From: a virus
Lineage: Duplodnaviria; Heunggongvirae; Uroviricota; Caudoviricetes
Virus record (IMG/VR): IMGVR_UViG_2585427777_000008
Coordinates: 1-63,513 of that record
Strand: one strand, 5' to 3'
Length of the DNA stretch: 63,513 bases
Part shown: positions 6,321-43,823 of the stretch, one piece after another
Position numbering within the stretch: the stretch's first letter is position 1
Layout: every line of letters starts with the position of its first letter
Position numbers and translations under genes: made by a program
The notes under the pieces: model-generated
The model's input: the letters and a program-made list of their open reading frames with translations, nothing else
The model's database searches: none
Told to the model about the DNA's origin: nothing

Positions 6321-7358
6321 TTACCAGAGTTTAGCGGCGTGCTGTGTTTGGGAGAAAGTGAACCCGTAACGTTCTTCTATGGTTTTACCGTATCTTTTCC
6401 GCGCGTCTGTCAGTTTTATGCCTGTCAGGTCATCTCCGGATGTCATCATTACGTCTAACAACTCCAGATCCATTTTATTCAGTCTCGCCATCGCTTCGCG
6501 TGCTGTCTGTATTTTACGCTCAATGATATGGCGAATAGCCGGATCGGCTTCCTCAAGCATTTTGGCTGATTTGTTCTTTAAGCTCTCATTGCGGATGTCG
6601 ATGTTTCGCAAGATGTATGACTTCGCAACATAGCTTGGTTGGTGTTTCTCCAGATCGCGAACGCGATAGAGACTAAAGTCACCAAGCAGGCCGCAAGGTA
6701 TCGACTCAACCCCAGAATAAATAGTAATGCTGCGACGTTCGCCGACATTATTAACAACGGGCACTGTGGTGTTCGGAAGTTTTGCGAACACTAAGGCTCC
6801 GTGTGCGCCTACCCTGAATCGTGACAGAGCATTGCTGCCTTCAATGTTTGTTGTAAGCACTACATCTGTGTATCCATCTTTGCGCGCCCGGTAAACTTCC
6901 CCTTCAGGTTCTGATGCGAAAAAACGGCGCTCTTCTTCAAGTGCACCAACAATCTGCGAAAATATCTTGTTTTTCAGGCTTTTCTTTATAATTGCATCAT
7001 ATTTTTTGAGCAGATTTTCGCGCGTAAATGAGCGGGTGGTGGTCGCGCTTTGCACAACAATATGCGTGCTTTGATTTGTGTCCTCGATAATGAATGGGAT
7101 CGGAGAATATACAGACTCAACAATGTTAGACGCTTTGCCGTCAGCGTTACGGCACAAGTCAACAAAGGCTTTCCATTCTGTGAGGCACTTTTCAGCTTCT
7201 TCTAGCACATTCTGATCATGTGTTAGTGCAACATGGCGGAATTCCTCGCCGGCATAACTGGTATCATGGAAAACAGAGTTTGCGACCACCAGCTCTTTCC
7301 ACCGTGCAGCGGTTTGCAGGAACCGTTTGTACTCTTTCTCGATCGACTTCTTACTCAT
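6321..7358 (-). CDS. putative C1-like immunity repressor (assignment by position)
   Basis: 345-aa ORF between pacB and the rox site, transcribed away from rox as c1 is in P1; operator-like motifs lie in its upstream region. No motif-level confirmation. Confidence 0.4.
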   Translation of the reverse strand: MSKKSIEKEYKRFLQTAARWKELVVANSVFHDTSYAGEEFRHVALTHDQNVLEEAEKCLTEWKAFVDLCRNADGKASNIVESVYSPIPFIIEDTNQSTHIVVQSATTTRSFTRENLLKKYDAIIKKSLKNKIFSQIVGALEEERRFFASEPEGEVYRARKDGYTDVVLTTNIEGSNALSRFRVGAHGALVFAKLPNTTVPVVNNVGERRSITIYSGVESIPCGLLGDFSLYRVRDLEKHQPSYVAKSYILRNIDIRNESLKNKSAKMLEEADPAIRHIIERKIQTAREAMARLNKMDLELLDVMMTSGDDLTGIKLTDARKRYGKTIEERYGFTFSQTQHAAKLW

Positions 7359-7376
7359 TATTCCTACTCGATTTAG

Positions 7377-7386
7377 TTTTCTAACA
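7377..7386. promoter_or_regulatory. operator-like motif TTTTCTAACA
   Basis: 19 bp upstream of the c1-like start codon; dispersed motif family. Confidence 0.4.
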
Positions 7387-7461
7387 TAAAATTACTATGA
7401 CAAATCTATGCCGAATAACAGGGTGAGTAAAGGATCAAGATGTGTTTTTTTATCATCAAAT

Positions 7462-7471
7462 TTAGAAAATT
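7462..7471. promoter_or_regulatory. operator-like motif (inverted orientation, TTAGAAAATT)
   Basis: Second copy in the c1-like upstream region; a third copy (AATTTCTAAC, 7554-7563) overlaps the left arm of rox. Confidence 0.3.
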
Positions 7472-7559
7472 CCGCTTAAAAACTGCCTGGCATAACTTAA
7501 AGCCCACACCAGCAATGCATTGCCCATCTGCGCGGAAAGGAAAAAATTTCCTAAATTTC

Positions 7560-7591
7560 TAACTTTAAATAATTGGCATTATTTAAAGTTA
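7560..7591. other. rox: rox-type site-specific recombination site (Dre target)
   Basis: TAACTTTAAATAATTGGCATTATTTAAAGTTA: perfect 14-bp inverted arms around a 4-bp core; its reverse complement is the rox sequence described for phage D6. Lies 150 bp upstream of the recombinase gene. Confidence 0.85.
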
Positions 7592-7743
7592 GGCTATAAT
7601 CATGTGTAGATGAACAGTGTTGACATCACTGAAAATACGTGCCTCGAATCAAAGGCTTGTATTTTGAAAATTAACTTATAGCTACCCTGTCATTTTTATA
7701 TTTTTCGCGTAGCGTCATCTGTATATAGAGGTCAAATAGTTTC

Positions 7744-8772
7744 ATGAGTGAATTAATTATCTCTGGCAGTTCCGGTGGTTTTCTGCGCAACATTGGCAAA
7801 GAGTACCAGGAAGCCGCAGAAAACTTTATGCGGTTCATGAATGACCAGGGAGCTTATGCGCCGAATACTCTGCGCGACCTCCGTTTGGTGTTTCATTCCT
7901 GGGCGCGCTGGTGTCACGCTCGCCAGCTTGCCTGGTTTCCGATCTCACCAGAAATGGCCCGCGAGTATTTTCTTCAGCTGCATGATGCCGATCTGGCTTC
8001 GACCACCATTGATAAGCACTACGCCATGCTGAACATGCTGCTTTCGCATTGTGGCCTTCCACCACTTTCGGATGATAAAAGTGTTTCTCTGGCTATGCGG
8101 CGCATCCGGCGCGAAGCGGCAACTGAAAAAGGCGAACGAACAGGCCAGGCTATACCGCTGCGGTGGGACGATCTGAAACTGCTCGACGTCCTGCTGTCCA
8201 GGTCAGAACGGCTGGTGGATCTGCGCAACCGGGCTTTTCTCTTTGTTGCATACAATACGCTGATGCGTATGTCGGAAATCTCGCGTATTCGTGTAGGAGA
8301 TCTGGACCAAACAGGTGACACTGTCACGCTACATATTTCACACACGAAGACAATAACGACCGCCGCCGGGCTTGATAAGGTGCTTTCCCGTCGCACTACC
8401 GCTGTGCTGAATGACTGGCTGGATGTTTCCGGGCTTCGCGAACATCCTGACGCAGTGCTGTTCCCGCCGATACACCGTAGCAATAAGGCCAGGATCACGA
8501 CAACGCCCCTTACTGCACCTGCAATGGAGAAAATATTCAGCGACGCCTGGGTGTTGCTGAATAAAAGAGATGCTACGCCAAACAAAGGAAGATACCGGAC
8601 GTGGACCGGGCATAGTGCACGCGTCGGGGCCGCTATTGATATGGCTGAAAAGCAGGTGTCTATGGTGGAGATCATGCAGGAAGGAACCTGGAAGAAACCG
8701 GAAACACTTATGCGGTATCTTCGCCGTGGCGGCGTGTCTGTGGGGGCTAATAGCCGCCTGATGGACTCGTAA
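7744..8772 (+). CDS. dre: Cre-family tyrosine recombinase, Dre-like
   Basis: 342 aa colinear with Cre: conserved SLAMRRIRRE, AYNTLMRMSEI, GHSARVGAAIDMA and C-terminal Tyr region (ETLMRYLRR). Adjacent rox site. Confidence 0.9.
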   Translation: MSELIISGSSGGFLRNIGKEYQEAAENFMRFMNDQGAYAPNTLRDLRLVFHSWARWCHARQLAWFPISPEMAREYFLQLHDADLASTTIDKHYAMLNMLLSHCGLPPLSDDKSVSLAMRRIRREAATEKGERTGQAIPLRWDDLKLLDVLLSRSERLVDLRNRAFLFVAYNTLMRMSEISRIRVGDLDQTGDTVTLHISHTKTITTAAGLDKVLSRRTTAVLNDWLDVSGLREHPDAVLFPPIHRSNKARITTTPLTAPAMEKIFSDAWVLLNKRDATPNKGRYRTWTGHSARVGAAIDMAEKQVSMVEIMQEGTWKKPETLMRYLRRGGVSVGANSRLMDS

Positions 8773-8778
8773 ATTAAA

Positions 8779-8788
8779 TTTCTAACAC
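8779..8788. promoter_or_regulatory. operator-like motif TTTCTAACAC
   Basis: Immediately after the dre stop and upstream of the 8846 ORF. Confidence 0.35.
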
Positions 8789-8845
8789 ATCTTTTTAGAT
8801 TAACGCCTTTGCTGTAAAGTACCCTCGCCTATTTAGGAGGGTGCT

Positions 8846-9190
8846 TTGCAGAGTCAAATCACGGAATCAAGACGCTTCAAGGTGGATGGTTACACCGTAA
8901 CCTTCGCCGCTGGTGTTAAGAACAGTCATGCTGTCGTTGTGTTCGGCATCATGACCGGGCTTGAGGCCGTCCCTGTGTTTACCCTCGAAAAAAACTGGCG
9001 AAATCTGGAGGAAGCAGAAAGCTACGTCCGGAAAGTAACCATCATTGCCGCCGAAAAACTCCTGGCCCACTATCAGGAAAATTATCGCACTATGGTCGAG
9101 AAGATTAATCTCGCTTTCACTCGCCCCACTACCGGCTTTATTGCACCGGATACTAATGCAGGTCGATATCCGGCAAGGGGGCGTCGGTGA
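8846..9190 (+). CDS. hypothetical protein
   Basis: 114-aa ORF preceded by RBS-like GGAGG; overlaps the next ORF start. Confidence 0.4.
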   Translation: MQSQITESRRFKVDGYTVTFAAGVKNSHAVVVFGIMTGLEAVPVFTLEKNWRNLEEAESYVRKVTIIAAEKLLAHYQENYRTMVEKINLAFTRPTTGFIAPDTNAGRYPARGRR

Positions 9191-10168: not shown

Positions 10169-10846
10169 ATGAATAACATGGCAACGAAAGAGCTTTTTAA
10201 GTTCCTTCCCAAATACAAAGCTCACAAAAACGTTAGTGCATCGAAAATCAAAAATGTTGTTATTTTCGGAGTAACTGATGCCCCACTTTGGGGCTGCATC
10301 GAACTCGTTGAACCAAAAGGGGCAACAGTTTGTGTTGACGCAATGTTTTTACAAAAACACCGACCAAAAACTGGCGGGTATCTGATCGTTTATGAAAACG
10401 GTTATCTGTTCTATGCCCCGGAGAAACCATTTGAGGAACGCTATGGCCTGGTTAACGACGCCTCCAAAAATGGAACCACGGTCATCATTACGGATGACAA
10501 CGGCGTGATGATTAATCTTACCGGGAGCGTAACTATTTCTGCTGGTGGCATCACCACCCAGCAAGAAGAAATCGACCTTGAAGCAGCCGACTTTTCTGAC
10601 GCGCTGATGTGGCTGAAGGATGGCAAGAAAGTTGCTCGACGCGGGTGGAACGGCGAAAACCAATTCTGCTGGCTGGTTCCTGAAGGACAGTACCCGGCAC
10701 GAATGGAAGCCATTAAGGGATATTTCCCCGGCGACCTCGTTCCGTATGGTGCTTATTTCGCCTTAAAAAATGCACAAGGTGTAGTTGTTCCGTGGGTTCC
10801 TTCTGTAGGCGACTTACTGGCATGTGACTGGTTTGTAGTGGAGTGA
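10169..10846 (+). CDS. hypothetical protein with DUF2829-like C-terminal region
   Basis: 225 aa; C-terminal segment (ALMWLKDGKKVARRGWNG...GAYFALKNAQGVVVPWVPS) resembles a phage-associated domain of unknown function. Confidence 0.45.
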   Translation: MNNMATKELFKFLPKYKAHKNVSASKIKNVVIFGVTDAPLWGCIELVEPKGATVCVDAMFLQKHRPKTGGYLIVYENGYLFYAPEKPFEERYGLVNDASKNGTTVIITDDNGVMINLTGSVTISAGGITTQQEEIDLEAADFSDALMWLKDGKKVARRGWNGENQFCWLVPEGQYPARMEAIKGYFPGDLVPYGAYFALKNAQGVVVPWVPSVGDLLACDWFVVE

Positions 10847-10852
10847 TTTGAC

Positions 10853-11620
10853 ATGGAAAGCACCAAAACAATTCAATACCGCTTGCGTAATGGCCTGCTG
10901 GTGGCTGTTAACGCCGACATGTCACTGCCGTTTGACACGATTGAACGCACTATCATGACGTATCTCGGCTTTAATGAAGAGCTGAATGAAGAGCATGGCG
11001 TAGCTATATGGAGTGATGCAGACAGCGGCGTTCGTCGTTACATCACCGCCAGGGGCAAAGACTACTCTCTGGAAGAACTGTTTACCCTTGCGCAGTCTTT
11101 CGAATGTGTAGCATTAGACCTGTTTAATGATCCTGCTATAGCGCAACGACTTATACGCGAGCTTGGGCTATCCGTTACACCAATTATCTTTAAAAATGGC
11201 AGCCTGACTGGCACATGGCGCGTAGAACGCATCTCAAACTACCTTCCATATAACCGACAGTTAAATGGAGTAATCTCCGGCGTTAATCAGCCCGTAGCGT
11301 GTGAAAATGTAAACCTAGTTGTCGCTGTTTTGGCAACCGCATGTCGTGTTATCGGTTTGGCTAAACAGGCATTTATTCATTTCCCAAATGGTGCAGAAGG
11401 TAGCGCAGAGATTATCGCGTGTGATTTCGAATTTACCTGGATGCTACGCGAATATCTGGACCAAACAGTATTCCGTGCCGAAGAACTGGATATGTATATC
11501 ACGTCAACGATTCCAGACGATGTGCGAGCTGAAGCAATCGCTACAGCCAGGGCGAAATGCCGTGCGGCAATTGCAGAACAGGCCAAAGAAAAAGTTAAGG
11601 AAGTGGCAGATGGCGACTAA
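10853..11620 (+). CDS. hypothetical protein
   Basis: 255-aa ORF; its stop overlaps the start of the PacB paralog. Confidence 0.5.
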   Translation: MESTKTIQYRLRNGLLVAVNADMSLPFDTIERTIMTYLGFNEELNEEHGVAIWSDADSGVRRYITARGKDYSLEELFTLAQSFECVALDLFNDPAIAQRLIRELGLSVTPIIFKNGSLTGTWRVERISNYLPYNRQLNGVISGVNQPVACENVNLVVAVLATACRVIGLAKQAFIHFPNGAEGSAEIIACDFEFTWMLREYLDQTVFRAEELDMYITSTIPDDVRAEAIATARAKCRAAIAEQAKEKVKEVADGD

Positions 11621-12704
11621 GAGCAATATTTATAAAGATCCGCGCTGGCTGTCGCTGGTGGAGAAATATAAAGACAATTGGGTACTGGCAGCAAAAGAAT
11701 TGTTTGATATTGATTTAAGCCACCAGCAACAACAAATTGTTGAAGCTATACAGCCCAATAATGCAAAAGCTACTGTCACCACTCCGTATGGGATCGGACG
11801 ACCGCAAGTGCTTGCTGTTATTAGTACCCTTTATACGATTATGTATCCTGATTCCCGGACAGTAATTGTTTATCCAAAATCAAATGTTTGCAAAAGAGGA
11901 ATTGTTGCATATGTGTGGCAATGTTGGGAGGCATTGCTGAAAAAACAACCTTTTATCATTGAGTATTTTAAGGTCGGTGATAGCGGTCTGATGTTCAATG
12001 AATTTTGGGGAATGTGCTTTTGTAACTACCGCCTTAACTATGAAGATAGCATTGCAGGTCACTACGCCGACCATCTTTTATTCATTATTGTGGATTCCGC
12101 ACATATCAGCGATCGGGCATACAGCATTGTGTGGGCAAGCATGACTAGTGGTGATTCACGCATATTGCTCACTTCAATTCCGTCACCAGAGGAAATAGGC
12201 TTTTTTTATGATTCACATCATGGACGTGCTTTAGCTGAAGATAATCCGAGTGGTGTATATAAAGCCATTAAGCTGAGTGCGGAGGATTCACCATTTATTA
12301 CCCAAGAATATCTTGATCATTTTGCCGAAAGGTATGGCGGGCGAAATAGTGATGACTATCGTCGTATGATTCTTGGTGAGTTCCCTGGTATTAGGGAGGC
12401 TGTTCTTGAATCAGATATGCCGAAGACAATGCGCTTTTCGATGCCTGATGGTAGTGAATGGACAATGCCATTACGAGTGATAGCCCGGCATCATGCGCAG
12501 CACCACGCCAAAAAACATGGCGTCACGACATTAGAATGGTTGAAATCGCACACTATTCCACTCTTCACTGCAGATCACAATGCTATCGTTGAGTGGGCAA
12601 AAACAATTCCGTGGGAGCATGTCGCTGAATATGCTCACATGCTAAAACCGCCGAAAGACAGGCACGAAATTAGCTGGCTGACAGCCGAAAAAATCATTGA
12701 ATGA
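11610..12704 (+). CDS. PacB-like paralog with degenerate ATPase motifs and no nuclease domain
   Basis: Start taken at the ATG at 11610 (MATKSNIYKDPRWL), not the overlapping upstream ATG. Aligns with the PacB N-terminal half (DPRW, SHQQQ, YFYDSHH) but Walker A is PYGIGRP and Walker B is LFIIVDSAH; the C-terminus is unrelated to the PacB nuclease region. Confidence 0.6.
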   Translation: MATKSNIYKDPRWLSLVEKYKDNWVLAAKELFDIDLSHQQQQIVEAIQPNNAKATVTTPYGIGRPQVLAVISTLYTIMYPDSRTVIVYPKSNVCKRGIVAYVWQCWEALLKKQPFIIEYFKVGDSGLMFNEFWGMCFCNYRLNYEDSIAGHYADHLLFIIVDSAHISDRAYSIVWASMTSGDSRILLTSIPSPEEIGFFYDSHHGRALAEDNPSGVYKAIKLSAEDSPFITQEYLDHFAERYGGRNSDDYRRMILGEFPGIREAVLESDMPKTMRFSMPDGSEWTMPLRVIARHHAQHHAKKHGVTTLEWLKSHTIPLFTADHNAIVEWAKTIPWEHVAEYAHMLKPPKDRHEISWLTAEKIIE

Positions 12705-12749
12705 TATCAACAAAAAGCCCGCCTGGTCTGGCGGGCTTCTTTATGCGCC

Positions 12750-13139
12750 TTAAATCACAGGTCTATAATCAAACTCCCCACTTCGGGCATCATTAATGAC
12801 ATGAGTGATCACACCAAAAACAGCATTACTGCCCGTGCATCCATCGTCATCTACTGGTAACGCCTCTTTCTTCCCGGTGCTTAAATCCTCCAGGTGCTGG
12901 CGCGGATATTTCCTGTATCTCTTTATGCGATATTCACCCTCCATAGCGCATATAAGCAGTGAACCATCAACCGGAGTAAGTGAGGAATCAACCACCAGCA
13001 AAGCACCTTGCAATATTCCCTCACGGTGATGGCTGTCTGCCGCCCGCATGAAGTAGGTCGCGGAAGGATGTCTGATTAGTTGCTGATCAAGAGAAATGCG
13101 GCTCTCTGCATAATCCGCCGCAGGAGAAGGGAAGCCCAT
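12750..13139 (-). CDS. humD: UmuD'-like SOS mutagenesis protein (HumD-like, S24 peptidase fold)
   Basis: 129 aa starting GFPSPAADY, colinear with the processed UmuD' form (HPSATYF...VFGVITHVI). Confidence 0.85.
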   Translation of the reverse strand: MGFPSPAADYAESRISLDQQLIRHPSATYFMRAADSHHREGILQGALLVVDSSLTPVDGSLLICAMEGEYRIKRYRKYPRQHLEDLSTGKKEALPVDDDGCTGSNAVFGVITHVINDARSGEFDYRPVI

Positions 13140-13262
13140 AGCGTTTTACCTTAATGATACTGTTTATTCATACAGTATACATTGAAAAGGCATAGTTTGT
13201 GAAAGCGGGGTTTGTAGGCGCGCCACGCTGGGGGCTAATCACATTTCTCCCCCATCTTGCCG

Positions 13263-13529
13263 TTATTTTTTTGGTGCATCCTCGTTCTGATACACCGGAT
13301 CGCTCCCTTTTGGCAACTGGAGGCTTAACTGCCGGTAGTGCCGTAGCCGTTCCATGAAATAGGTGCGCAGATTCTCTGGTTGCTCGCGGGCTACCTGTTC
13401 AGCTATGACAGGTATGTTCAATCGCTCTTTGTACGCCACACCGCTGGCAGCCAGATCAACGTTAACCTTATCCCGTTCTTCCTGACTTTTGGCTGCAATA
13501 TTCCAGTCGCTCATGTTTAAGGCTCGCAT
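13263..13529 (-). CDS. hypothetical protein
   Basis: 88-aa ORF at the distal end of the long minus-strand operon. Confidence 0.4.
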
Positions 13530-13789
13530 TTCCAGATGGTATTCTGAACGCCTGTTCCGGGCGCAAGATGAGGATTAGCGTTAGCACTATGCTGATATAC
13601 GGCTTTAGACTTTCCGTATTGCTGGCAGGCTTTATCCGCTGTTTTTTGCAGGCTATCCAGGCCATACCAACCATCTGACTGGATGCTAACCTTTTCTCCG
13701 TCATTGTATTGCACCATAGCACACCCAGACATAGCCAACATCGCACCGACAATAACGCTTTTACCTAAAAATCTACGCAACATATACAA
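13517..13789 (-). CDS. putative lipoprotein
   Basis: 90 aa; N-terminal signal-like segment ending in a lipobox-like LAMSGC. Confidence 0.5.
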
Positions 13790-13886
13790 AAATCCCCTCT
13801 GTGAATTGAGGGGATTTTAGCATGGTGATCAGATATCAGCTTTATTCAGAATTTTACCCACCAGCTATGTGATTTTTTCTGACAGG

Positions 13887-14726
13887 TCATCTTTTATACT
13901 TGCACTTATGACATGCGAATCTCCACTGTTCATGGTCAAAGCACCAGAATACTTCCCTGGGCAGATTGTGTTTTTTCATTTGCGCCAGCACGTGCGTTGG
14001 CGTATTTGCGGGGATTTCTGGTAGCAAAGCCTTAGCCATTTCATGAATTAACATAGCATCTATTACCCCAAGCGTATGCCCCGCCTTAATCTTTAATGCG
14101 GTTTCAAGATGGCCCCTTTCCAGAGTTGTACTCACTCTTGGCTTCGGCGCTTGTGGATGGGTATCCAGACGGTTGCCAGATTCATAGGCTACCCGCAGCC
14201 AGTGCATGAATGTTTCCGTAGACACACAACCGCAGTCCTGGTCGATTTTTTCGTGTTGCTGCCCCAGCCACTGCTCAAAATTTAACTTGTTGGATGCTTC
14301 TAGAGCCTCTTCGTATTGTTTGCGCGAAATTATTTCCGTGTATTCCTCACGATCAAGGTTACTTATCGGGAGTCTGACCTCAAGGCAAAAATGGCGTCCT
14401 CGCAGGCTTTTTGCTGGGTCAGAGCCAAAAGCAAAGAGGCCATATGATGGTTCATACTCGTCCTCTCTAACCATGCGACAATCGAGCACATCATCAGGCC
14501 ACCCTCCACGCTTTGGCAGCTCCTGCACCAACAAGTCAATCAGCTTTATGGTTTCACCATCCTTGCAGGTTGCTAACGCTATTTTGGCAAGCTCCAACAC
14601 CTCATCTGCCGTATATCCAGCACCGTGTCCATACATTTCGATGCGTGCAATAATCTCTGATATGCGCAATTTAGTGATTCTGGTCATTTCTTGTTGCTCC
14701 ATTTCTTTTCGCATTCTTTGGTCCAA
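13887..14726 (-). CDS. hypothetical protein with C-terminal Cys/His cluster
   Basis: 279 aa; C-terminus WCFDHEQWRFACHKCKYKR suggests a small metal-binding knuckle. Confidence 0.45.
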   Translation of the reverse strand: MDQRMRKEMEQQEMTRITKLRISEIIARIEMYGHGAGYTADEVLELAKIALATCKDGETIKLIDLLVQELPKRGGWPDDVLDCRMVREDEYEPSYGLFAFGSDPAKSLRGRHFCLEVRLPISNLDREEYTEIISRKQYEEALEASNKLNFEQWLGQQHEKIDQDCGCVSTETFMHWLRVAYESGNRLDTHPQAPKPRVSTTLERGHLETALKIKAGHTLGVIDAMLIHEMAKALLPEIPANTPTHVLAQMKKHNLPREVFWCFDHEQWRFACHKCKYKR

Positions 14727-15058
14727 TTTTCAATGTTCCTTTTGGCAATATCAGTCATTCCATCACCTAAGAAATACTTATTCCGGTATGCCTTGCACTT
14801 AAACCACACTACAACAGCCACCAGCCAGAAAATAAAAGGCCAAAAAACAATTCCAACGAGTGAGACAATAAAGCCAAATATCCACAAATGAAGCTCGCCT
14901 ACTTCTGTTTCCGGTAATATCTTTAAAGAGTTAAGCAGCAGGATGAATGAATGGTCGTATGCATTTGCGGCATAAGACATGCAATCCATATAATTAAAGT
15001 CATAGCCTGCGGCTGCCGCCCATAATGGACGGTCAAGAAAATGTTTGAATGTCATCAT
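14684..15058 (-). CDS. putative membrane protein
   Basis: 124 aa with a long hydrophobic stretch (LWIFGFIVSLVGIVFWPFIFWLVAVVVWF). Confidence 0.45.
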   Translation of the reverse strand: MMTFKHFLDRPLWAAAAGYDFNYMDCMSYAANAYDHSFILLLNSLKILPETEVGELHLWIFGFIVSLVGIVFWPFIFWLVAVVVWFKCKAYRNKYFLGDGMTDIAKRNIENWTKECEKKWSNKK

Positions 15059-15140
15059 ATAAAATTACTCAATTACACAGTGTTGCAGCCCCCTGCCGTA
15101 ACGACAGGGGTAATAATATTGCTGGTGGTTTGAATCTTTC

Positions 15141-15299
15141 TCATGAAAGAATAAAAGCTAACATGCCCGCGAGTAATAAGGTGTCACCAACCATTACGCC
15201 GCAGTTCTCCGTTCCCCATTCTACGCCACCAGCTAAAGCAACAAAAAAGCCACAAACACAGACAAATAAAAACGTAGACCAAAACTTTTTATTTTTCAT
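15141..15299 (-). CDS. possible small membrane protein (52 aa)
   Basis: ATG overlaps the stop of the upstream gene (TAATG); translation MKNKKFWSTFLFVCVCGFFVALAGG... has two hydrophobic segments. Not in the ORF track. Confidence 0.3.
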   Translation of the reverse strand: MKNKKFWSTFLFVCVCGFFVALAGGVEWGTENCGVMVGDTLLLAGMLAFILS

Positions 15300-15592
15300 T
15301 ACGGATTGCTCCAGTTATCTTCAATAGCAATACTTAATCTCTGTAGCCATTCTGCTAATTTAAGCATTGCTTCTCTTTCGCTTAAACCACGCGGAAAATC
15401 ATCAAGCGCTATTGTTGGCTTGAAGTTACCAAAATTATCCATTTCAACGGTAAGATTTTGCTCCAGCACGGTATTCCTTACGCGGCTATTGTGCCGGAGC
15501 AAATATACTGAGCGTGATTTATTGGTTTTGTGGTCTAACGTATATTCGGTAAGTATCATCTGGCTTCTGCCATGACTATTACCACGCCACAT
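15299..15592 (-). CDS. hypothetical protein
   Basis: 97-aa ORF in the operon. Confidence 0.4.
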   Translation of the reverse strand: MWRGNSHGRSQMILTEYTLDHKTNKSRSVYLLRHNSRVRNTVLEQNLTVEMDNFGNFKPTIALDDFPRGLSEREAMLKLAEWLQRLSIAIEDNWSNP

Positions 15593-15604
15593 AATTACTC
15601 CGTG

Positions 15605-16045
15605 TTAATAAGAGAAATAGACCGTTGCAACACTGTTATATTGGTCGAACGAAATAGCATTTACTTCATAGCTGGTGGGCAGCTTCTTACCAAGAATGTA
15701 GCCAGGCCATGAGTTCCACGGAATTTCTGTTCGGTCGTCGTCTTGCCACATTACACAACCAAGAGAACCAACCATTTCGCTATTCCTCTTTCCGCAAGTA
15801 ACAAAGCCTATATTCGGTTTTGATTGTGTGACTGATACCGTGGTGGTGTTTGCGGAAGCATTGGTTGCAGCACGCCGCGCTTGCTCGCTGGCGATAGAAG
15901 CATTTACTGCCGCCGTGGTCGCCGCTGTTGCCGCCGCTGTTGCCGCCGCTGTTGCCGCCGCTCCAGCGGCAATAACTGACGCGTGGGATAAATGACTGGC
16001 TGATAACATAGCCAGAAAAATAATAGCTCTTTGAAATTTAGCCAT
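15605..16045 (-). CDS. putative secreted protein with (AAAT)n low-complexity repeat
   Basis: 146 aa with an N-terminal signal-like segment; repeat AAATAAATAAATAATTAA encoded by a 12-bp tandem DNA repeat. Confidence 0.5.
   Translation of the reverse strand: MAKFQRAIIFLAMLSASHLSHASVIAAGAAATAAATAAATAATTAAVNASIASEQARRAATNASANTTTVSVTQSKPNIGFVTCGKRNSEMVGSLGCVMWQDDDRTEIPWNSWPGYILGKKLPTSYEVNAISFDQYNSVATVYFSY
15918..15962. repeat. 12-bp tandem repeat (GTTGCCGCCGCT, about 3.7 copies) inside a coding region
   Basis: Direct tandem copies read on the + strand; in-frame, so copy-number change would alter repeat length without a frameshift. Confidence 0.6.
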
Positions 16046-16319
16046 TGATATTAACCTTTATCGCAAATACCTTAACCGGATTCTCTCCAAAGTGCGGATG
16101 TGTAATTGTCTTTATTTCATACCCTTCATACGGGACGTCTATTCTGCGACTGGAATCGTCGCGCTTCGGATATCCCTTTGTGATAATCAGGCGGTCATAT
16201 TCCCGGAACATGATTCGCTTATTCCAGTAGCCATTACACAAGCGATACTCTTCCGTTTTCTCTCCGCGAATCATGGCATCGAAGTATTCACCTTTGACGG
16301 CAAGTTGCAGGTTAGCCAC
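16038..16319 (-). CDS. ASCH/PUA-like domain protein
   Basis: 93 aa; N-terminal LAVKGEYFDAMIRGEKTEEYR resembles the ASCH-type G-x-K-x-x-E-x-R signature. Confidence 0.45.
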   Translation of the reverse strand: MANLQLAVKGEYFDAMIRGEKTEEYRLCNGYWNKRIMFREYDRLIITKGYPKRDDSSRRIDVPYEGYEIKTITHPHFGENPVKVFAIKVNING

Positions 16320-17115
16320 GGTTAACCTCCTGCGGCGGCTCTGGTAGTGGCATCCAATTGATTACATCGCATTCAGGGATGCTGATATCATCACCAAGCC
16401 ACCCTTGACCTTCAGACCAGCATTGCACGTAATACCCGTATTCTGTGTTCACTACGCACCACTGCGCGTCGTTCGGCATTCGCTCACTACAGCTTATCCA
16501 ACTATCCGGAGTTACCGGATAGTTGCGCATTGCGACCTTTAATGCCTCATAGAAGCAACCTTTCAGATTGTTGAACTGACGCCCATTAAGAGGGCCGTGT
16601 TCAGTAAGCATGTTGCGTAATTTCCATGCCGCGTCGTTTACTTCGTTGGATGACAGGGGAGGCAACTTGTAAGTTTGGCTTACAGGTTCGGCACCATGAA
16701 GCATGGCGCCGCTCCGCTCTATGCCATCCAGCGCGATTCGCAGTGCCTGAATTGTGGTAGAGCTATCGTTTGGGGCTATTCCATATCGCTCGAATACAGC
16801 TAAATGGTTGCGCATAATCTCAGGCGTAAGCTCTTTGTAAGCATAAGCAAGAGGCTCTGATGCATTATCCGGCACAACCGACGCAGGCGCGGCAGCATAA
16901 ACAGGAATAACGTCCGCTTGCTCTTTATTGCTTTCATCCGTTAAAGCCCAGAATAATTTCCCGGCCGGATGTTTGAAAATATAAGCAACTGGATCTGCTT
17001 CCAGCGATGCCAGTGCAATTTCATAAGCACGGCGCTCAATATTGTCTCGAACGTCCAGGCTGCTGATACGCTCTTTGATTTCTTTAATCAGTTCTTTGTC
17101 GGTGAAAGTGGTCAT
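16312..17115 (-). CDS. hypothetical protein with DUF551-like Cys/Trp-rich C-terminus
   Basis: 267 aa; C-terminal WISCSERMP...WCVV...CWSEGQGW pattern typical of a prophage domain of unknown function. Confidence 0.45.
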   Translation of the reverse strand: MTTFTDKELIKEIKERISSLDVRDNIERRAYEIALASLEADPVAYIFKHPAGKLFWALTDESNKEQADVIPVYAAAPASVVPDNASEPLAYAYKELTPEIMRNHLAVFERYGIAPNDSSTTIQALRIALDGIERSGAMLHGAEPVSQTYKLPPLSSNEVNDAAWKLRNMLTEHGPLNGRQFNNLKGCFYEALKVAMRNYPVTPDSWISCSERMPNDAQWCVVNTEYGYYVQCWSEGQGWLGDDISIPECDVINWMPLPEPPQEVNRG

Positions 17116-17116
17116 A

Positions 17117-17419
17117 TCACTCTCCTTTTCCCGCTGCTTTCGCCTGCTCTTTAGCGAGTCGCTCCGCTTCTCTGAAATCCCAATCCACTCGATGTGCTAT
17201 ATCAAGTGCAGAACGCACGGTCCGTTCAATTAGCGTATCCAGGTTATCAATTGTCATTGCCATATCTGGATTGCGAGATAAAATCTCCGCCCTCTGAATC
17301 TGCCAGTTGTTGCATGTTTCAAGTAATGAGTTAGCCATATCACTCTCCTTTGATGCGAATGCCAGTGGCGCGTGGCACATTAACTTCCACGATGCGCACT
17401 GTTGGTTTGTACATCTCAA
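17117..17419 (-). CDS. hypothetical protein
   Basis: 100-aa ORF; overlaps the neighbouring ORF by about 80 bp, so the true start is uncertain. Confidence 0.35.
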   Translation of the reverse strand: MRCTNQQCASWKLMCHAPLAFASKESDMANSLLETCNNWQIQRAEILSRNPDMAMTIDNLDTLIERTVRSALDIAHRVDWDFREAERLAKEQAKAAGKGE

Positions 17420-17984
17420 TCGCTGTCAGCCAGTCAGCTCCTGTCATGCGCTTTTCCGCATCGCCATTAGTCCACTGAACCGGTACACCAATAGCCTTCA
17501 TCGCGATTTCTATTTCCCCGGCGATGGCGCTTTTTCCGCAACCAGTAAAACCAGAAACAACGACAAGAACTTCACCTTTGGCTGGTTTTATTTCCCGTGC
17601 TTCCAGTTCTGCTATGCGCTTACTTCCATCCGCGATTACTCCCTCGTAATATTCACGCTGTTCGTTGAGTTTTGATTTTGCCGACTCCAGTTGTTTTGTT
17701 AGTTCCGCAATACGGCAAACATCGTTGATACGCGTTTCCTCTAATGCGTTGATCTCATCCAGTAGTGCCAGCACGGTTTCTGGTCCGGCCAGAAATTTGA
17801 AGGCGTTGAGGGCATCAATATCCACACCGTAATCTTTAAGTTCTTGTTCACTTAACAAATCATCATCAGCTGGCAACATTAACAGGCGTTCCATTGCTGG
17901 AATTGCACGTTCCGCCGCCTCACGCAGTGCCTGGTAATTAATTTCGCTCACTGGTTGCCTCCTTTGCGAAGCTGTTCCGCCCAT
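17340..17984 (-). CDS. Ea22/Ead-like lambdoid early protein (paralog 1)
   Basis: 214 aa; N-terminal INYQALREAAERA signature shared with paralog 2, followed by a coiled-coil. Confidence 0.5.
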   Translation of the reverse strand: MGGTASQRRQPVSEINYQALREAAERAIPAMERLLMLPADDDLLSEQELKDYGVDIDALNAFKFLAGPETVLALLDEINALEETRINDVCRIAELTKQLESAKSKLNEQREYYEGVIADGSKRIAELEAREIKPAKGEVLVVVSGFTGCGKSAIAGEIEIAMKAIGVPVQWTNGDAEKRMTGADWLTAIEMYKPTVRIVEVNVPRATGIRIKGE

Positions 17985-18652
17985 TCTTCAAGGGATTTCT
18001 CCGCATATTCACCAGATAGGCCATCAATCGGATGCGCTTCATTAGCCAACTCTTCTTTCGCTGACAAAATCATGCGTGTAACGTCGAAAACTTCACGCAA
18101 AGACTTATTGATAAATCCGTGATTGAACGCAGCAGCAAGACGGCTGGCGGTATAGTTAATCCCCTCGTTGCGTGCTTCCGCACGAATTTCAGCCAGAAAA
18201 GCATCGGTGGCTGGGGTTTCGCTGTGGTGCAGAGCATCGTTGATAATCATCGCAGCAACTCCGGCCTGCCCTGCATCCGTTACCGACACATGCTCAAGAG
18301 TTACGGCCATTGCGTGTTTCAGTCCGGCGTTCTCTGCCACCAGCGCCGCGATATTAGTTTCAAGCTCTGCAATACGGCACATAGCATCAATATTTGAGTC
18401 CTCCTGACGTTTAATTTCATCCAGTAGTGACAACGCAACTTTTGGTGGGATAGCAGCGATATAACGGGCATTAGCACCAGCATTCCTTTGTCCATCAATG
18501 CCAGGCCAGTCAATAAAGTATCCGCAATGCCTACCCTCAGATGTGCGCGCAGGATAAATGCCGTTATGCCCCGGCAAAATATATGCTACCCATTCATCTT
18601 GCGTTGCCTGCTCCGCTGCCTCGCGCAACTCCTGATAGTTAGTTTCACTCAC
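17948..18652 (-). CDS. Ea22/Ead-like lambdoid early protein (paralog 2)
   Basis: 234 aa starting MSETNYQELREAAEQ; C-terminal region is paralogous to the ORF at 21763..22272. Confidence 0.5.
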   Translation of the reverse strand: MSETNYQELREAAEQATQDEWVAYILPGHNGIYPARTSEGRHCGYFIDWPGIDGQRNAGANARYIAAIPPKVALSLLDEIKRQEDSNIDAMCRIAELETNIAALVAENAGLKHAMAVTLEHVSVTDAGQAGVAAMIINDALHHSETPATDAFLAEIRAEARNEGINYTASRLAAAFNHGFINKSLREVFDVTRMILSAKEELANEAHPIDGLSGEYAEKSLEEWAEQLRKGGNQ

Positions 18653-18839
18653 TATCTGCTCCTTCCGCTTTCTCTGCTTTATCCGCCATGATTTCCAGCT
18701 TTTGTGCTGCTGATGCCGCTAACATTTGAAATTCTTCATCTGTTTCAACTGGAATTGGTACAAACCTGACTCCAATTTGAGCAAGGCTATGCGCCATCTC
18801 TAGACTTGCTCTTAACTCTGCTGGTGAGGCTTTATTCAT
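18645..18839 (-). CDS. hypothetical small protein
   Basis: 64-aa ORF coupled to neighbours. Confidence 0.3.
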   Translation of the reverse strand: MNKASPAELRASLEMAHSLAQIGVRFVPIPVETDEEFQMLAASAAQKLEIMADKAEKAEGADSE

Positions 18840-18935
18840 TTGGCTTCCCCCTTCCGATACATCATGATTACCAGGCCTCCATTTGTAGTAATGCGGATGG
18901 TGCTGCCTGGCTCCATGCTCATGCCTTTATCCCAA

Positions 18936-19931: not shown

Positions 19932-19973
19932 AATGCATACCGACTCTGTTTTGTTCCGAGTGGTAAAATAATA

Positions 19974-20003
19974 TGTTAGAAAACTAAAATCAATGTTCTA
20001 ACG
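19974..20003. promoter_or_regulatory. operator-like inverted pair TGTTAGAAAA-N12-TTCTAACG
   Basis: Lies between the phosphatase stop and the start of the 18936..19931 gene, at the head of the leftward operon. Confidence 0.4.
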
Positions 20004-20028
20004 CATTTTGAGTGCGTAAATGATTTGA

Positions 20029-23391: not shown

Positions 23392-23423
23392 TGTGTTAGA
23401 AAATCAATTTTGAATATCTAACA
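23392..23423. promoter_or_regulatory. operator-like inverted pair TGTGTTAGAAAA-N13-TCTAACA in a divergent promoter region
   Basis: Between the divergently transcribed 22576..23226 gene and the ref-like gene. Confidence 0.45.
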
Positions 23424-23471
23424 GTTTTGATCAATCATAGAAAAATCGTTGAAAAGTAAGAGACTGCCATC

Positions 23472-24050
23472 ATGCAGAAACAGAGTTATTGGGAGAAACA
23501 GAGACAAAAAGCCATGCAAAAATTGGCTGACCCGGCCTGGCGAGAGGAACAAAGGGCAAAGCGCCTTCAACAAGCTCAACGCCAGCAGCAGCGAGCGAGA
23601 GAAAAAGCCGCATCGCCTGAATATCGGCAAAAGAAAATTGAAAAAGCAAAGCAATATGAACAGCGGAGAAAAGATAAAGCTGTATCCGCTCCGTCCAAAA
23701 AAACACGCACGTCACGCGGCCTGAAGGGCAGATCACTCACAGCTGATGAACGCCGGATACAGACCGCTATCGGTACTCTCCCCTGCATTGCCTGCCATAT
23801 TCACGGACAACATAGCCCAGTAGTATCCCTGCACCATATCTTCGGGAGAACGGCAGAGAACGCGCATAAATATGTCCTCCCTTTGTGTAAATGGCACCAC
23901 CAGTACGCAGCGCCAGCCGAGGTCCGAGAACAATATCCCTGGCTGGTCCCTGTTCATGCTGATGGAAAAATAGGCGGAAAAGCAGATTTCATACGGCACA
24001 ATGCCGATGAAATGGCGTTGTATCAGATGGCGATTGAATTGATAAATTAG
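23472..24050 (+). CDS. ref: Ref-like HNH endonuclease (recombination enhancement function-like)
   Basis: 192 aa; highly charged Lys/Arg/Gln-rich N-terminal half and C-terminal HNH-like Cys/His cluster (CIACHIHGQH...CKWHH). Operator-like motif upstream, as for P1 ref. Confidence 0.6.
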   Translation: MQKQSYWEKQRQKAMQKLADPAWREEQRAKRLQQAQRQQQRAREKAASPEYRQKKIEKAKQYEQRRKDKAVSAPSKKTRTSRGLKGRSLTADERRIQTAIGTLPCIACHIHGQHSPVVSLHHIFGRTAENAHKYVLPLCKWHHQYAAPAEVREQYPWLVPVHADGKIGGKADFIRHNADEMALYQMAIELIN

Positions 24051-24060
24051 TTTTCTAACA
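24051..24060. promoter_or_regulatory. operator-like motif TTTTCTAACA at the head of the immI-like region
   Basis: Directly after the ref-like stop, upstream of the candidate immunity RNA region. Confidence 0.4.
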
Positions 24061-24381
24061 TTTTAAGTTGAATTGTAAATTTCTCCGATGTACATTCACT
24101 ACCGATTGGCACACCGGTCAACTTTTTGAGACAAACTATTTAGTTTTTCGTATGATTGCCGCCGCCATACCAATGGCGGTGCAATATAGGTGGCTGAAAA
24201 GCCCCCGTTGACTCACGGTGTTCCAGCCTTTATTGCGCCGCCACCAGACCGTGGAACAGTCGATGGCGGCTCCGAAAGCAAGGAGTCACTACACTATGAA
24301 CAACTACAGTCTTTTCCCATCACTCGTCGTCCACCACTCACGCGATAATCTGCATTCTTTACTCGCGCCGGGGGTGTCAAA

Positions 24382-33746: not shown

Positions 33747-33780
33747 TGTGTTAGATAATTGAATAGAATTTTCTAACACA
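33747..33780. promoter_or_regulatory. operator-like perfect inverted repeat TGTGTTAGA-N16-TCTAACACA
   Basis: In the 59-bp gap upstream of rdgC. Confidence 0.45.
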
Positions 33781-43678: not shown

Positions 43679-43690
43679 TGTGTTAGAAAA
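43679..43690. promoter_or_regulatory. operator-like motif TGTGTTAGAAAA
   Basis: 14 bp upstream of the revised start of the 43273..43665 gene. Confidence 0.4.
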
Positions 43691-43823
43691 TTAAAATTAA
43701 ACCACATAACAACACGTGTGTTAACAGATTTTATTTTACTAATGCTATTGACTAAATCACAAAGTTGGTATTGTTAGCGCGTCAAAAGAACCTTCACGCC
43801 GCGACCGAATTTAGGGCTTAACC

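Follow-up and report, generated by a model that had tools for sequence, protein, structure and literature searches.

The locus at positions 7560 to 8772 of a 63,513-nucleotide viral sequence (IMG/VR record IMGVR_UViG_2585427777_000008; the whole of this stretch is referred to below as the window) is very probably the Dre/rox site-specific recombination module of a D6-like phage-plasmid, a reading to which we assign a probability of roughly 93% from sequence comparison. All of the features that define Dre/rox at the sequence level are present at this locus, and none of the observations speaks against the identification. Judged by identity to reference records, the recombinase is Dre itself, beyond being merely Dre-like, and the element that carries it is a D6-like phage-plasmid distinct from D6. 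The D6 records used for comparison were AY753669, covering the immC region, and MF356679, representing the complete genome. The finding of Dre/rox in this DNA is correct, was known before and is ordinary: since Dre/rox is a standard genome-engineering tool, and since both Dre and rox had been noticed earlier in E. coli strains H252 and DEC12A (PMC4957104), no new biology is revealed. The module does provide a secure annotation anchor, marking the window as a D6-type phage-plasmid with a fully intact Dre/rox system, while minor additions of value are a putative operator motif with its target set, a promoter embedded in rox and the natural diversity encountered around rox. The gene and site features of the module are as follows.

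6321-7358, minus strand: c1-type prophage repressor gene (345 aa), divergent from dre, with 90% protein identity to D6 C1
7560-7591, no strand assigned: rox recombination site, composed of left arm 7560-7573, asymmetric spacer TGGC 7574-7577 and right arm 7578-7591
7728-7731, plus strand: candidate ribosome-binding site GAGG, 12 nt before the dre ATG, read from the sequence
7744-8772, plus strand: dre, encoding a Cre-family tyrosine recombinase (342 aa) with 100% protein identity to D6 Dre

The rox site reads TAACTTTAAATAATTGGCATTATTTAAAGTTA and consists of perfect 14-bp inverted arms on either side of the 4-bp TGGC; an inverted-repeat listing gives 15-nt arms for this palindrome, because one additional flanking base pairs on each side. 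The preliminary description had recognized the palindrome as the rox site of phage D6, and this is borne out by the misc_recomb feature 'rox' of AY753669 (4909-4940), which it matches at 32 of 32 bases and whose orientation with respect to dre it shares. That record, deposited by the discoverers of Dre, annotates the feature as 'region of crossover (rox) site for Dre recombinase'. The 14-4-14 layout has been described in PMC4777119, where the usual printed rox string, TAACTTTAAATAATGCCAATTATTTAAAGTTA, is also found; this string is the exact reverse complement of the window site, while strings in the window's own orientation occur in PMC5964202 and PMC12824266. No second rox was found in the window with up to three mismatches allowed, nor did any occur in 100 shuffles. 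The distance from rox to the ATG of dre is 153 nt in the window, in D6 and in all 22 loci with a readable dre, and the sequence TATAGAGGT at the candidate ribosome-binding site of dre is conserved in the flank alignments.

The recombinase had been said to fit Dre as a 342-aa member of the Cre family, and the comparison leads to a firmer statement, as all 342 residues are identical to those of D6 Dre (AAV84949). Both alignments proposed in the preliminary description, i.e., of 7744-8772 to Dre and of 7560-7591 to rox, were accordingly at 100%, for the protein and for the site respectively. At the DNA level, 1000 of the 1029 bases of dre match those of D6; since the protein is unchanged, the 29 differences are all synonymous, and the fact that every one of them is silent points to strong purifying selection on the gene. 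The ORF matches Pfam Phage_integrase, its product exhibits 41% identity to P1 Cre over 322 aa, and a match to Cre chains in the PDB (E=5e-69) confirms the fold family. The active-site residues listed for Dre, i.e., R175, H290, R293, W316 and Y325 (PMC4777119), are all present in the window protein, as is K202. It has previously been demonstrated that Dre recombines rox without cross-reacting with Cre/loxP (PMC4777119, PMC12331466, PMC3553980), and Dre-dependent recombination between two rox sites has been shown experimentally for the identical protein and site (PMC4777119, PMC12331466), this being a simple two-site reaction that needs no accessory factors (PMC4777119). Since protein and site in the window are identical to this experimentally characterised pair, the biochemical reading, namely that they would recombine two rox sites in the manner of Cre and would not cross-react with loxP, is secure.

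The assignment of the element to the D6 type, likewise put forward in the preliminary description, also holds, with the qualification that the element itself is not D6. Synteny with D6 (MF356679) extends over 52.9 of its 63.5 kb, in collinear blocks that are 89-98% identical; the structural, repA-like and stbAB genes fall in one of these blocks, which spans 30.9 kb at 96.5%. The plasmids most closely related to it come from E. coli, Salmonella and Shigella and are circular, non-mobilizable and ~90 kb in size, and it is the combination of D6 synteny with these plasmid relatives that makes the designation 'D6-like phage-plasmid' the right one. Segment 7300-8900 matched 193 PLSDB records, the best of them at 98.7% (CP057742), while rox was detected in 119 of 5426 complete E. 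coli genomes, at 120 places of which three are chromosomal.

The mechanism that we propose for the window system follows that of Cre/loxP. By this analogy each 14-bp rox arm would be bound by one Dre monomer and two occupied rox sites would synapse as a tetramer, in which Tyr325 would cleave and exchange strands around the asymmetric TGGC centre via a Holliday intermediate. Plasmid multimers that arise through homologous recombination would be returned to monomers by Dre/rox, thereby aiding segregation of the low-copy prophage, and infecting linear DNA would be circularised when its terminal redundancy includes rox. We infer, again by analogy, that resolution of dimers or multimers and cyclisation would be the in vivo roles of Dre/rox in the window. 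Of the 120 places where rox occurs in complete E. coli genomes, 117 are on plasmids, as would be expected for a function in plasmid maintenance. A P1-like GATC cluster marking the pac site was searched for in pacA and was not found, so the geometry of cyclisation remains an analogy.

In addition to these roles, rox may be a natural point of exchange, at which Dre-mediated crossover between co-resident rox-bearing elements would bring the pac-c1 immunity side together with different dre sides and give rise to cointegrates with other plasmids, a proposal that we regard as possible though doubtful. Several observations are consistent with it. Identity between the window and D6 steps from 84% in c1 and 91% in pacB to 97-99% rightward of rox; left-flank homology to the window starts at most 4 bp from the edge of rox in 111 of 134 plasmid records; and across 20 IMG/VR loci and the plasmids one identical rox is found next to at least four distinct left flanks. 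Furthermore, an element of the D6 c1 class (L006) matches the first 184 nt of the window, counted from rox, at 100%, while the same 184 nt are just 96% identical to the window's own c1-class relatives, and an exact rox together with an 89%-identical Dre occurs on conjugative or mobilizable IncFIB and IncC plasmids. On the other hand, mosaic blocks are found throughout the alignment of the window with D6, such that the boundary at rox is not unique, and the same sharp edge would be expected if rox and dre are under strong selection next to a spacer that is free to evolve. The base at position 9 of the left rox arm also argues against exchange: it is G in all six of the inspected relatives that share the window's flank class, whereas the window carries the canonical A, which a central Dre crossover with a parent bearing G at that position would not yield.

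The flank class of the window is represented by 23 of 134 PLSDB records and by 27 of the 119 rox-bearing complete E. coli genomes. The 136 bp around rox had no exact match in PLSDB or in the complete E. coli genomes, the best match being at 97.8%. The rox copies of the IncFIB and IncC plasmids sit among IS26, IS903 and IS3 elements. As natural diversity, the A-to-G variant of the left rox arm and the joining of several immunity classes at rox are of minor value. A small ORF at 7440-7562 (40 aa) was considered as a gene and set aside, because it sits in a segment that is unalignable between classes.

A second proposal concerning rox is that it doubles as a regulatory element, with Dre autoregulating dre, transcription being tied to synapsis, and a degenerate C1 operator adding lysogeny control in the immunity class of the window; taken as a whole, we consider this tentative and rather unlikely. 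It draws on two promoter-like elements between rox and dre.

7573-7600, plus strand: sigma-70-like promoter directed toward dre, with -35 TTGGCA at 7573-7578, a 16-nt spacer and -10 TATAAT at 7595-7600
7620-7649, plus strand: second promoter-like element, with TTGACA at 7620-7625, an 18-nt spacer and TCGAAT at 7644-7649, read from the sequence

The first of these agrees with the consensus at 11 of 12 positions and was the sole promoter-like match in a scan of 7200-9000. Its -35 hexamer spans the rox spacer and its -10 hexamer begins 3 bp outside rox. In every aligned rox flank class, the IS-flanked IncFIB and IncC copies included, TATAAT is unchanged, while the 3 nt that separate it from rox and the ~20 bases that follow it are variable. 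This predicted promoter, with its -35 inside rox, appears to transcribe dre. Across the flank classes, TTGACA of the second element does not vary and TCGAAT hardly does, and a promoter function may be assigned to it on the basis of its sequence. Should the rox-embedded promoter be active, binding of Dre to rox would block it, and Dre would probably repress its own gene in this way. By alignment of the flank classes, this promoter is the better conserved regulatory feature when compared to the operator-like motif at the left arm (see below). Should rox indeed double as a regulatory element, the rox-side operator and promoter of the window would represent a compact counterpart of Oc1e/P4cre of phage P1, and rox scars might act as half-promoters in bacterial constructs; a promoter that overlaps rox could in any case matter to anyone placing rox sites in such constructs.

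The lysogeny-control component depends on a motif that we regard as a probable operator of the c1 repressor. The c1 gene of the window is 84% identical to that of D6 in DNA sequence, and its product is a distant relative of P1 C1 (22% identity over 167 aa, E=1e-7) that scores 23 bits against NCBIfam phage_rep_C1, far under the family cut-off, and matches phrog_1678 over its full length. A 16-bp motif, TTARTTTTCTAACAYA, emerged when k-mers of the c1-dre intergenic region were compared with the entire window. It is present in the window in eight strong copies of 22-27 bits, where about 0.2 copies of at least 16 bits would be expected by chance. Three of the eight strong copies have a weaker inverted partner alongside, the partners scoring 8.6, 9.8 and 15.8 bits. 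Orthologous sites in D6 lie directly upstream of c1, lpa, ref, hrdC, pdcB and pmgS, and further D6 sites are located upstream of both icd/antirepressor operons and just past the dre stop codon, with a weaker copy upstream of repL. Because this target set mirrors the annotated C1 regulon of P1 and because the repressor is distantly homologous to P1 C1, the motif is probably the D6-type C1 operator. No published D6-type operator motif turned up in the literature that was accessible, and no operators are annotated in the D6 records. The copies nearest to the module are the following.

7373-7388, plus strand: strong putative C1 operator TTAGTTTTCTAACATA, 15 bp upstream of the c1 start codon, 26.8 bits
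7551-7566, plus strand: degenerate operator-like motif CTAAATTTCTAACTTT, covering the first 7 bp of the left rox arm, 10.4 bits in the 16-column model
8774-8789, plus strand: strong putative C1 operator TTAAATTTCTAACACA, 2 bp after the dre stop codon, 24.9 bits

The site at 7373-7388 is invariant in all aligned c1 classes and has an orthologue in D6, where the operator upstream of c1 is identical, while that at 8774-8789 lies upstream of the orf2-orf3-dut genes and has its D6 orthologue at 89942-89965. The c1-rox-dre module is thus bracketed by two strong motif copies.

The degenerate copy at the left rox arm had been noted in the preliminary description as an operator-like motif through which repressor occupancy might modulate recombination or dre transcription. 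The motif is present and the family to which it belongs is real; the copy itself is weak and is absent from D6. The octamer TTTCTAAC occupies 7556-7563 within it. That C1 would bind 7551-7566 and thereby block Dre at the left rox arm, repress the rox-embedded dre promoter, or both, seems to us improbable, and we are just as sceptical of the corollary that recombination or dre expression would be coupled to the lysogenic state. Apart from the eight strong copies and their recurrence at orthologous D6 promoter regions, what speaks for such binding is that 12 consecutive bases, TAAATTTCTAAC, are common to the rox-left copy and the strong site, in which they occupy 8775-8786, and that with rox held fixed a random left flank equals the motif score with P ~4e-4 to 1.5e-3. 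The score is also similar to those of the weak partner half-sites of the three paired operators. There is, moreover, a positional precedent in P1, where Oc1e adjoins the -35 of P4cre 44 bp to the left of lox and is annotated with the remark that it 'may control expression of cra and cre', and annotated P1 operators themselves agree with the P1 consensus at just 10 to 16 of 17 positions.

These points are outweighed by the following. Set against the bona fide copies of the motif the rox-left copy is not comparable (10.4 versus 22-27 bits), falling 12-17 bits under every strong site, and in the wider 24-column model it reaches only 5.1 bits. The rox-left copy has T directly after CTAAC, where all eight strong sites have A, and rox itself contributes 4 to 7 of its bases. 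No strong partner site lies alongside it, and the position at which an inverted partner would be expected (7533-7548) matches the consensus at ~6 of 16 positions, judged by eye. Only relatives with the same flank class as the window keep the motif; the flanks of D6, class B and the IncFIB class lack it and score negative, so it would act, if at all, in one immunity class only.

Very improbable is the suggestion that the 32-bp palindrome serves chiefly as a terminator or RNA hairpin, insulating from each other the c1 and dre units, which are transcribed divergently. When transcribed, the palindrome would form a hairpin of 14-16 bp, with a predicted -16 to -19 kcal/mol for the whole folded segment, but the stem is AU-rich, and the conservation of the palindrome is fully explained by its identity to a proven recombination site. 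A terminator in particular was rejected, since neither strand has a U-run directly after the stem and a terminator scan did not call the palindrome. An Rfam scan of 7200-9000, at E up to 1, returned no RNA family. Hardly credible at all is an integrase reading, in which the palindrome would be an attP-like site through which the prophage enters the chromosome. The three chromosomal rox places in complete E. coli genomes would favour this, but they stand against 117 on ~90-kb plasmids. The site has the symmetric 14-4-14 design of the lox type, is identical to rox and is not an arm-type attP, and the protein is Dre, for which simple two-site recombination that needs no accessory factors has been documented (PMC4777119).

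The Dre/rox reading may finally be placed among known systems, the most remote of which are Cre-like systems related to Panto/pox. A scan of representative genomes with Dre returned only relatives of 41-47% identity and no further true Dre loci. Seventy-four such loci were found in Pantoea, Erwinia, Rahnella and Mixta, their recombinases being 41-47% identical to Dre, and most of these Erwiniaceae loci possess lox/rox-like palindromes 220-290 nt upstream, for example TAACTTCATATAA-N6-TTATATGAAGTTA. Relatives with upstream palindromes of their own fit the published Panto/pox system (PMC4957104), and Panto has been reported to recombine rox as well (PMC4957104). The Erwiniaceae systems differ from that of the window in the sequences of arms and spacer and in their location, which is mostly on large plasmids or chromosomal contigs and not on phage-plasmids of the P1/D6 type.

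Cre/loxP of phage P1 shares with the window system the enzyme family, the catalytic residues, a place next to c1 and the pac genes, and the presumed roles, and the P1 gene order pacA-pacB-c1-lox-cre corresponds to pacA-pacB-c1-rox-dre in the window. The sites are of different design, i.e., 13-8-13 in the 34-bp loxP as opposed to 14-4-14 in the window, and no match to the loxP arms was found in the window with up to three mismatches allowed. Given this result and an identity to Cre of just 41%, the window system is, by sequence, a homologue of Cre/loxP and not a member of it. Its layout is also more compact: in P1, cra and 419 bp separate lox from cre, and imcA/imcB/coi lie between c1 and lox, whereas in the window rox is only 153 bp from dre and 201 bp from c1. 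All annotated cre promoters of P1 lie outside lox, whereas the predicted -35 in the window lies inside rox. P1 also has a C1 operator and promoter, Oc1e/P4cre, just left of lox, to which the degenerate motif at the left rox arm would correspond if C1 were to act there.

Closest to the window are the D6-like plasmid prophages of E. coli and Salmonella (for example pYU39_89, PMC6799933, and the PLSDB rep_cluster_1704 plasmids), which are likewise circular, non-mobilizable and about 90 kb in size, and which carry the same c1-rox-dre module; the six inspected members of the window's flank class differ by the A-to-G change in the left rox arm, which the window does not have. Compared to D6 itself, the ~90 bp immediately to the left of rox are unalignable, and ~10.6 kb of the window is without a D6 counterpart. 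Dre/rox was reportedly described by Sauer and McDermott in 2004 as the system of Escherichia phage D6, and with the system of that phage the window shares the gene order pacA-pacB-c1-rox-dre-orf2-orf3-dut, the orientation of its components and the same spacing between rox and the start codon of dre.

The 16-bp motif TTARTTTTCTAACAYA was found in eight strong copies in the window, and weaker inverted partners of this motif were also detected, at the following positions:

2896-2911, 7373-7388, 8774-8789, 19972-19987, 23392-23407, 24047-24062, 33765-33780 and 43679-43694: strong copies of the 16-bp motif
19990-20005, 23410-23425 and 33747-33762: weaker inverted partners of the motif

The reference phage D6 carries the same motif at the orthologous promoter regions, i.e., those of c1, lpa, ref, hrdC, pdcB, pmgS and two icd/antirepressor operons, and also at the orthologous place after dre. 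The motif probably represents the D6-type C1 operator, marking the C1 regulon. The GenBank records of D6 do not annotate it, and a literature search found no mention of it within the searchable papers.

The variable spacer between the repressor gene c1 and rox, the recombination site of Dre, is flanked on both sides by a 14-nt inverted repeat (7458-7471 and 7545-7558), the copies of which are 93% complementary. Within the left copy (7458-7471) lies TTAGAAAA, which corresponds to the operator core TTTTCTAA in reverse complement and is invariant across all aligned c1 classes.

A natural rox variant, TAACTTTAGATAAT, was observed in each of the six plasmids inspected from the same c1 and left-flank class as the window:

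Left-arm position 9 (corresponding to window 7568): A-to-G substitution in rox, loci L028-L031 and L035-L037

The substitution renders the two rox arms unequal, while the rox site of the window is, unlike that of these six plasmids, canonical. A rox/Dre system with one point mutation has been mentioned for E. coli DEC12A (PMC4957104).

Comparison of dre (7744-8772) with its D6 equivalent revealed 29 nucleotide differences and not a single amino-acid change, whereas 36 of the 345 residues encoded by the adjoining c1 differ, a pattern which indicates that Dre is under unusually strong constraint relative to the adjoining repressor.

An exact rox site, together with a Dre of 89% identity, is also present on IncFIB and IncC plasmids of 49-215 kb, which are mobilizable or conjugative:

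L025: CP062864
L026: LC807804, pD223
L027: MG825383

On these three plasmids the rox spacing is unchanged at 153 nt, and the cassette is surrounded by IS26, IS903B, IS3 and IS1 elements, with no phage context. A search of complete E. coli genomes placed rox on the chromosome in three of 120 rox-bearing places, the others being located on plasmids; these three could be integrated copies, cointegrated copies or assembly artefacts.

More distant recombinases, with 41-47% identity to Dre, are encoded on genome contigs of Pantoea, Erwinia, Rahnella and Mixta (loci L038-L111). Most are preceded, 220-290 nt upstream, by a lox/rox-like palindrome with arms such as TAACTTCATATAA, TAACTTTATATAA and TGACTTCGTATAA and centres of 4-6 nt, and a conserved box resembling GGTATCAT/GGTATGAT often lies ~20 nt past the palindrome. 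These loci represent a natural series of enzyme and site variants.

Several stretches of 11594-18917 lack a D6 counterpart and encode typical accessory phage proteins, including two Ead/Ea22-like proteins and one DUF551 protein; several ORFs in these stretches matched no Pfam family. The ORF at 10169-10846 (225 aa) specifies a C-terminal Tad2-like domain (Thoeris anti-defence 2, formerly DUF2829; E=1.8e-22). Part of it is missing from D6 (window 10231-10465 does not align), and its D6 counterpart is orf114, of 146 aa.
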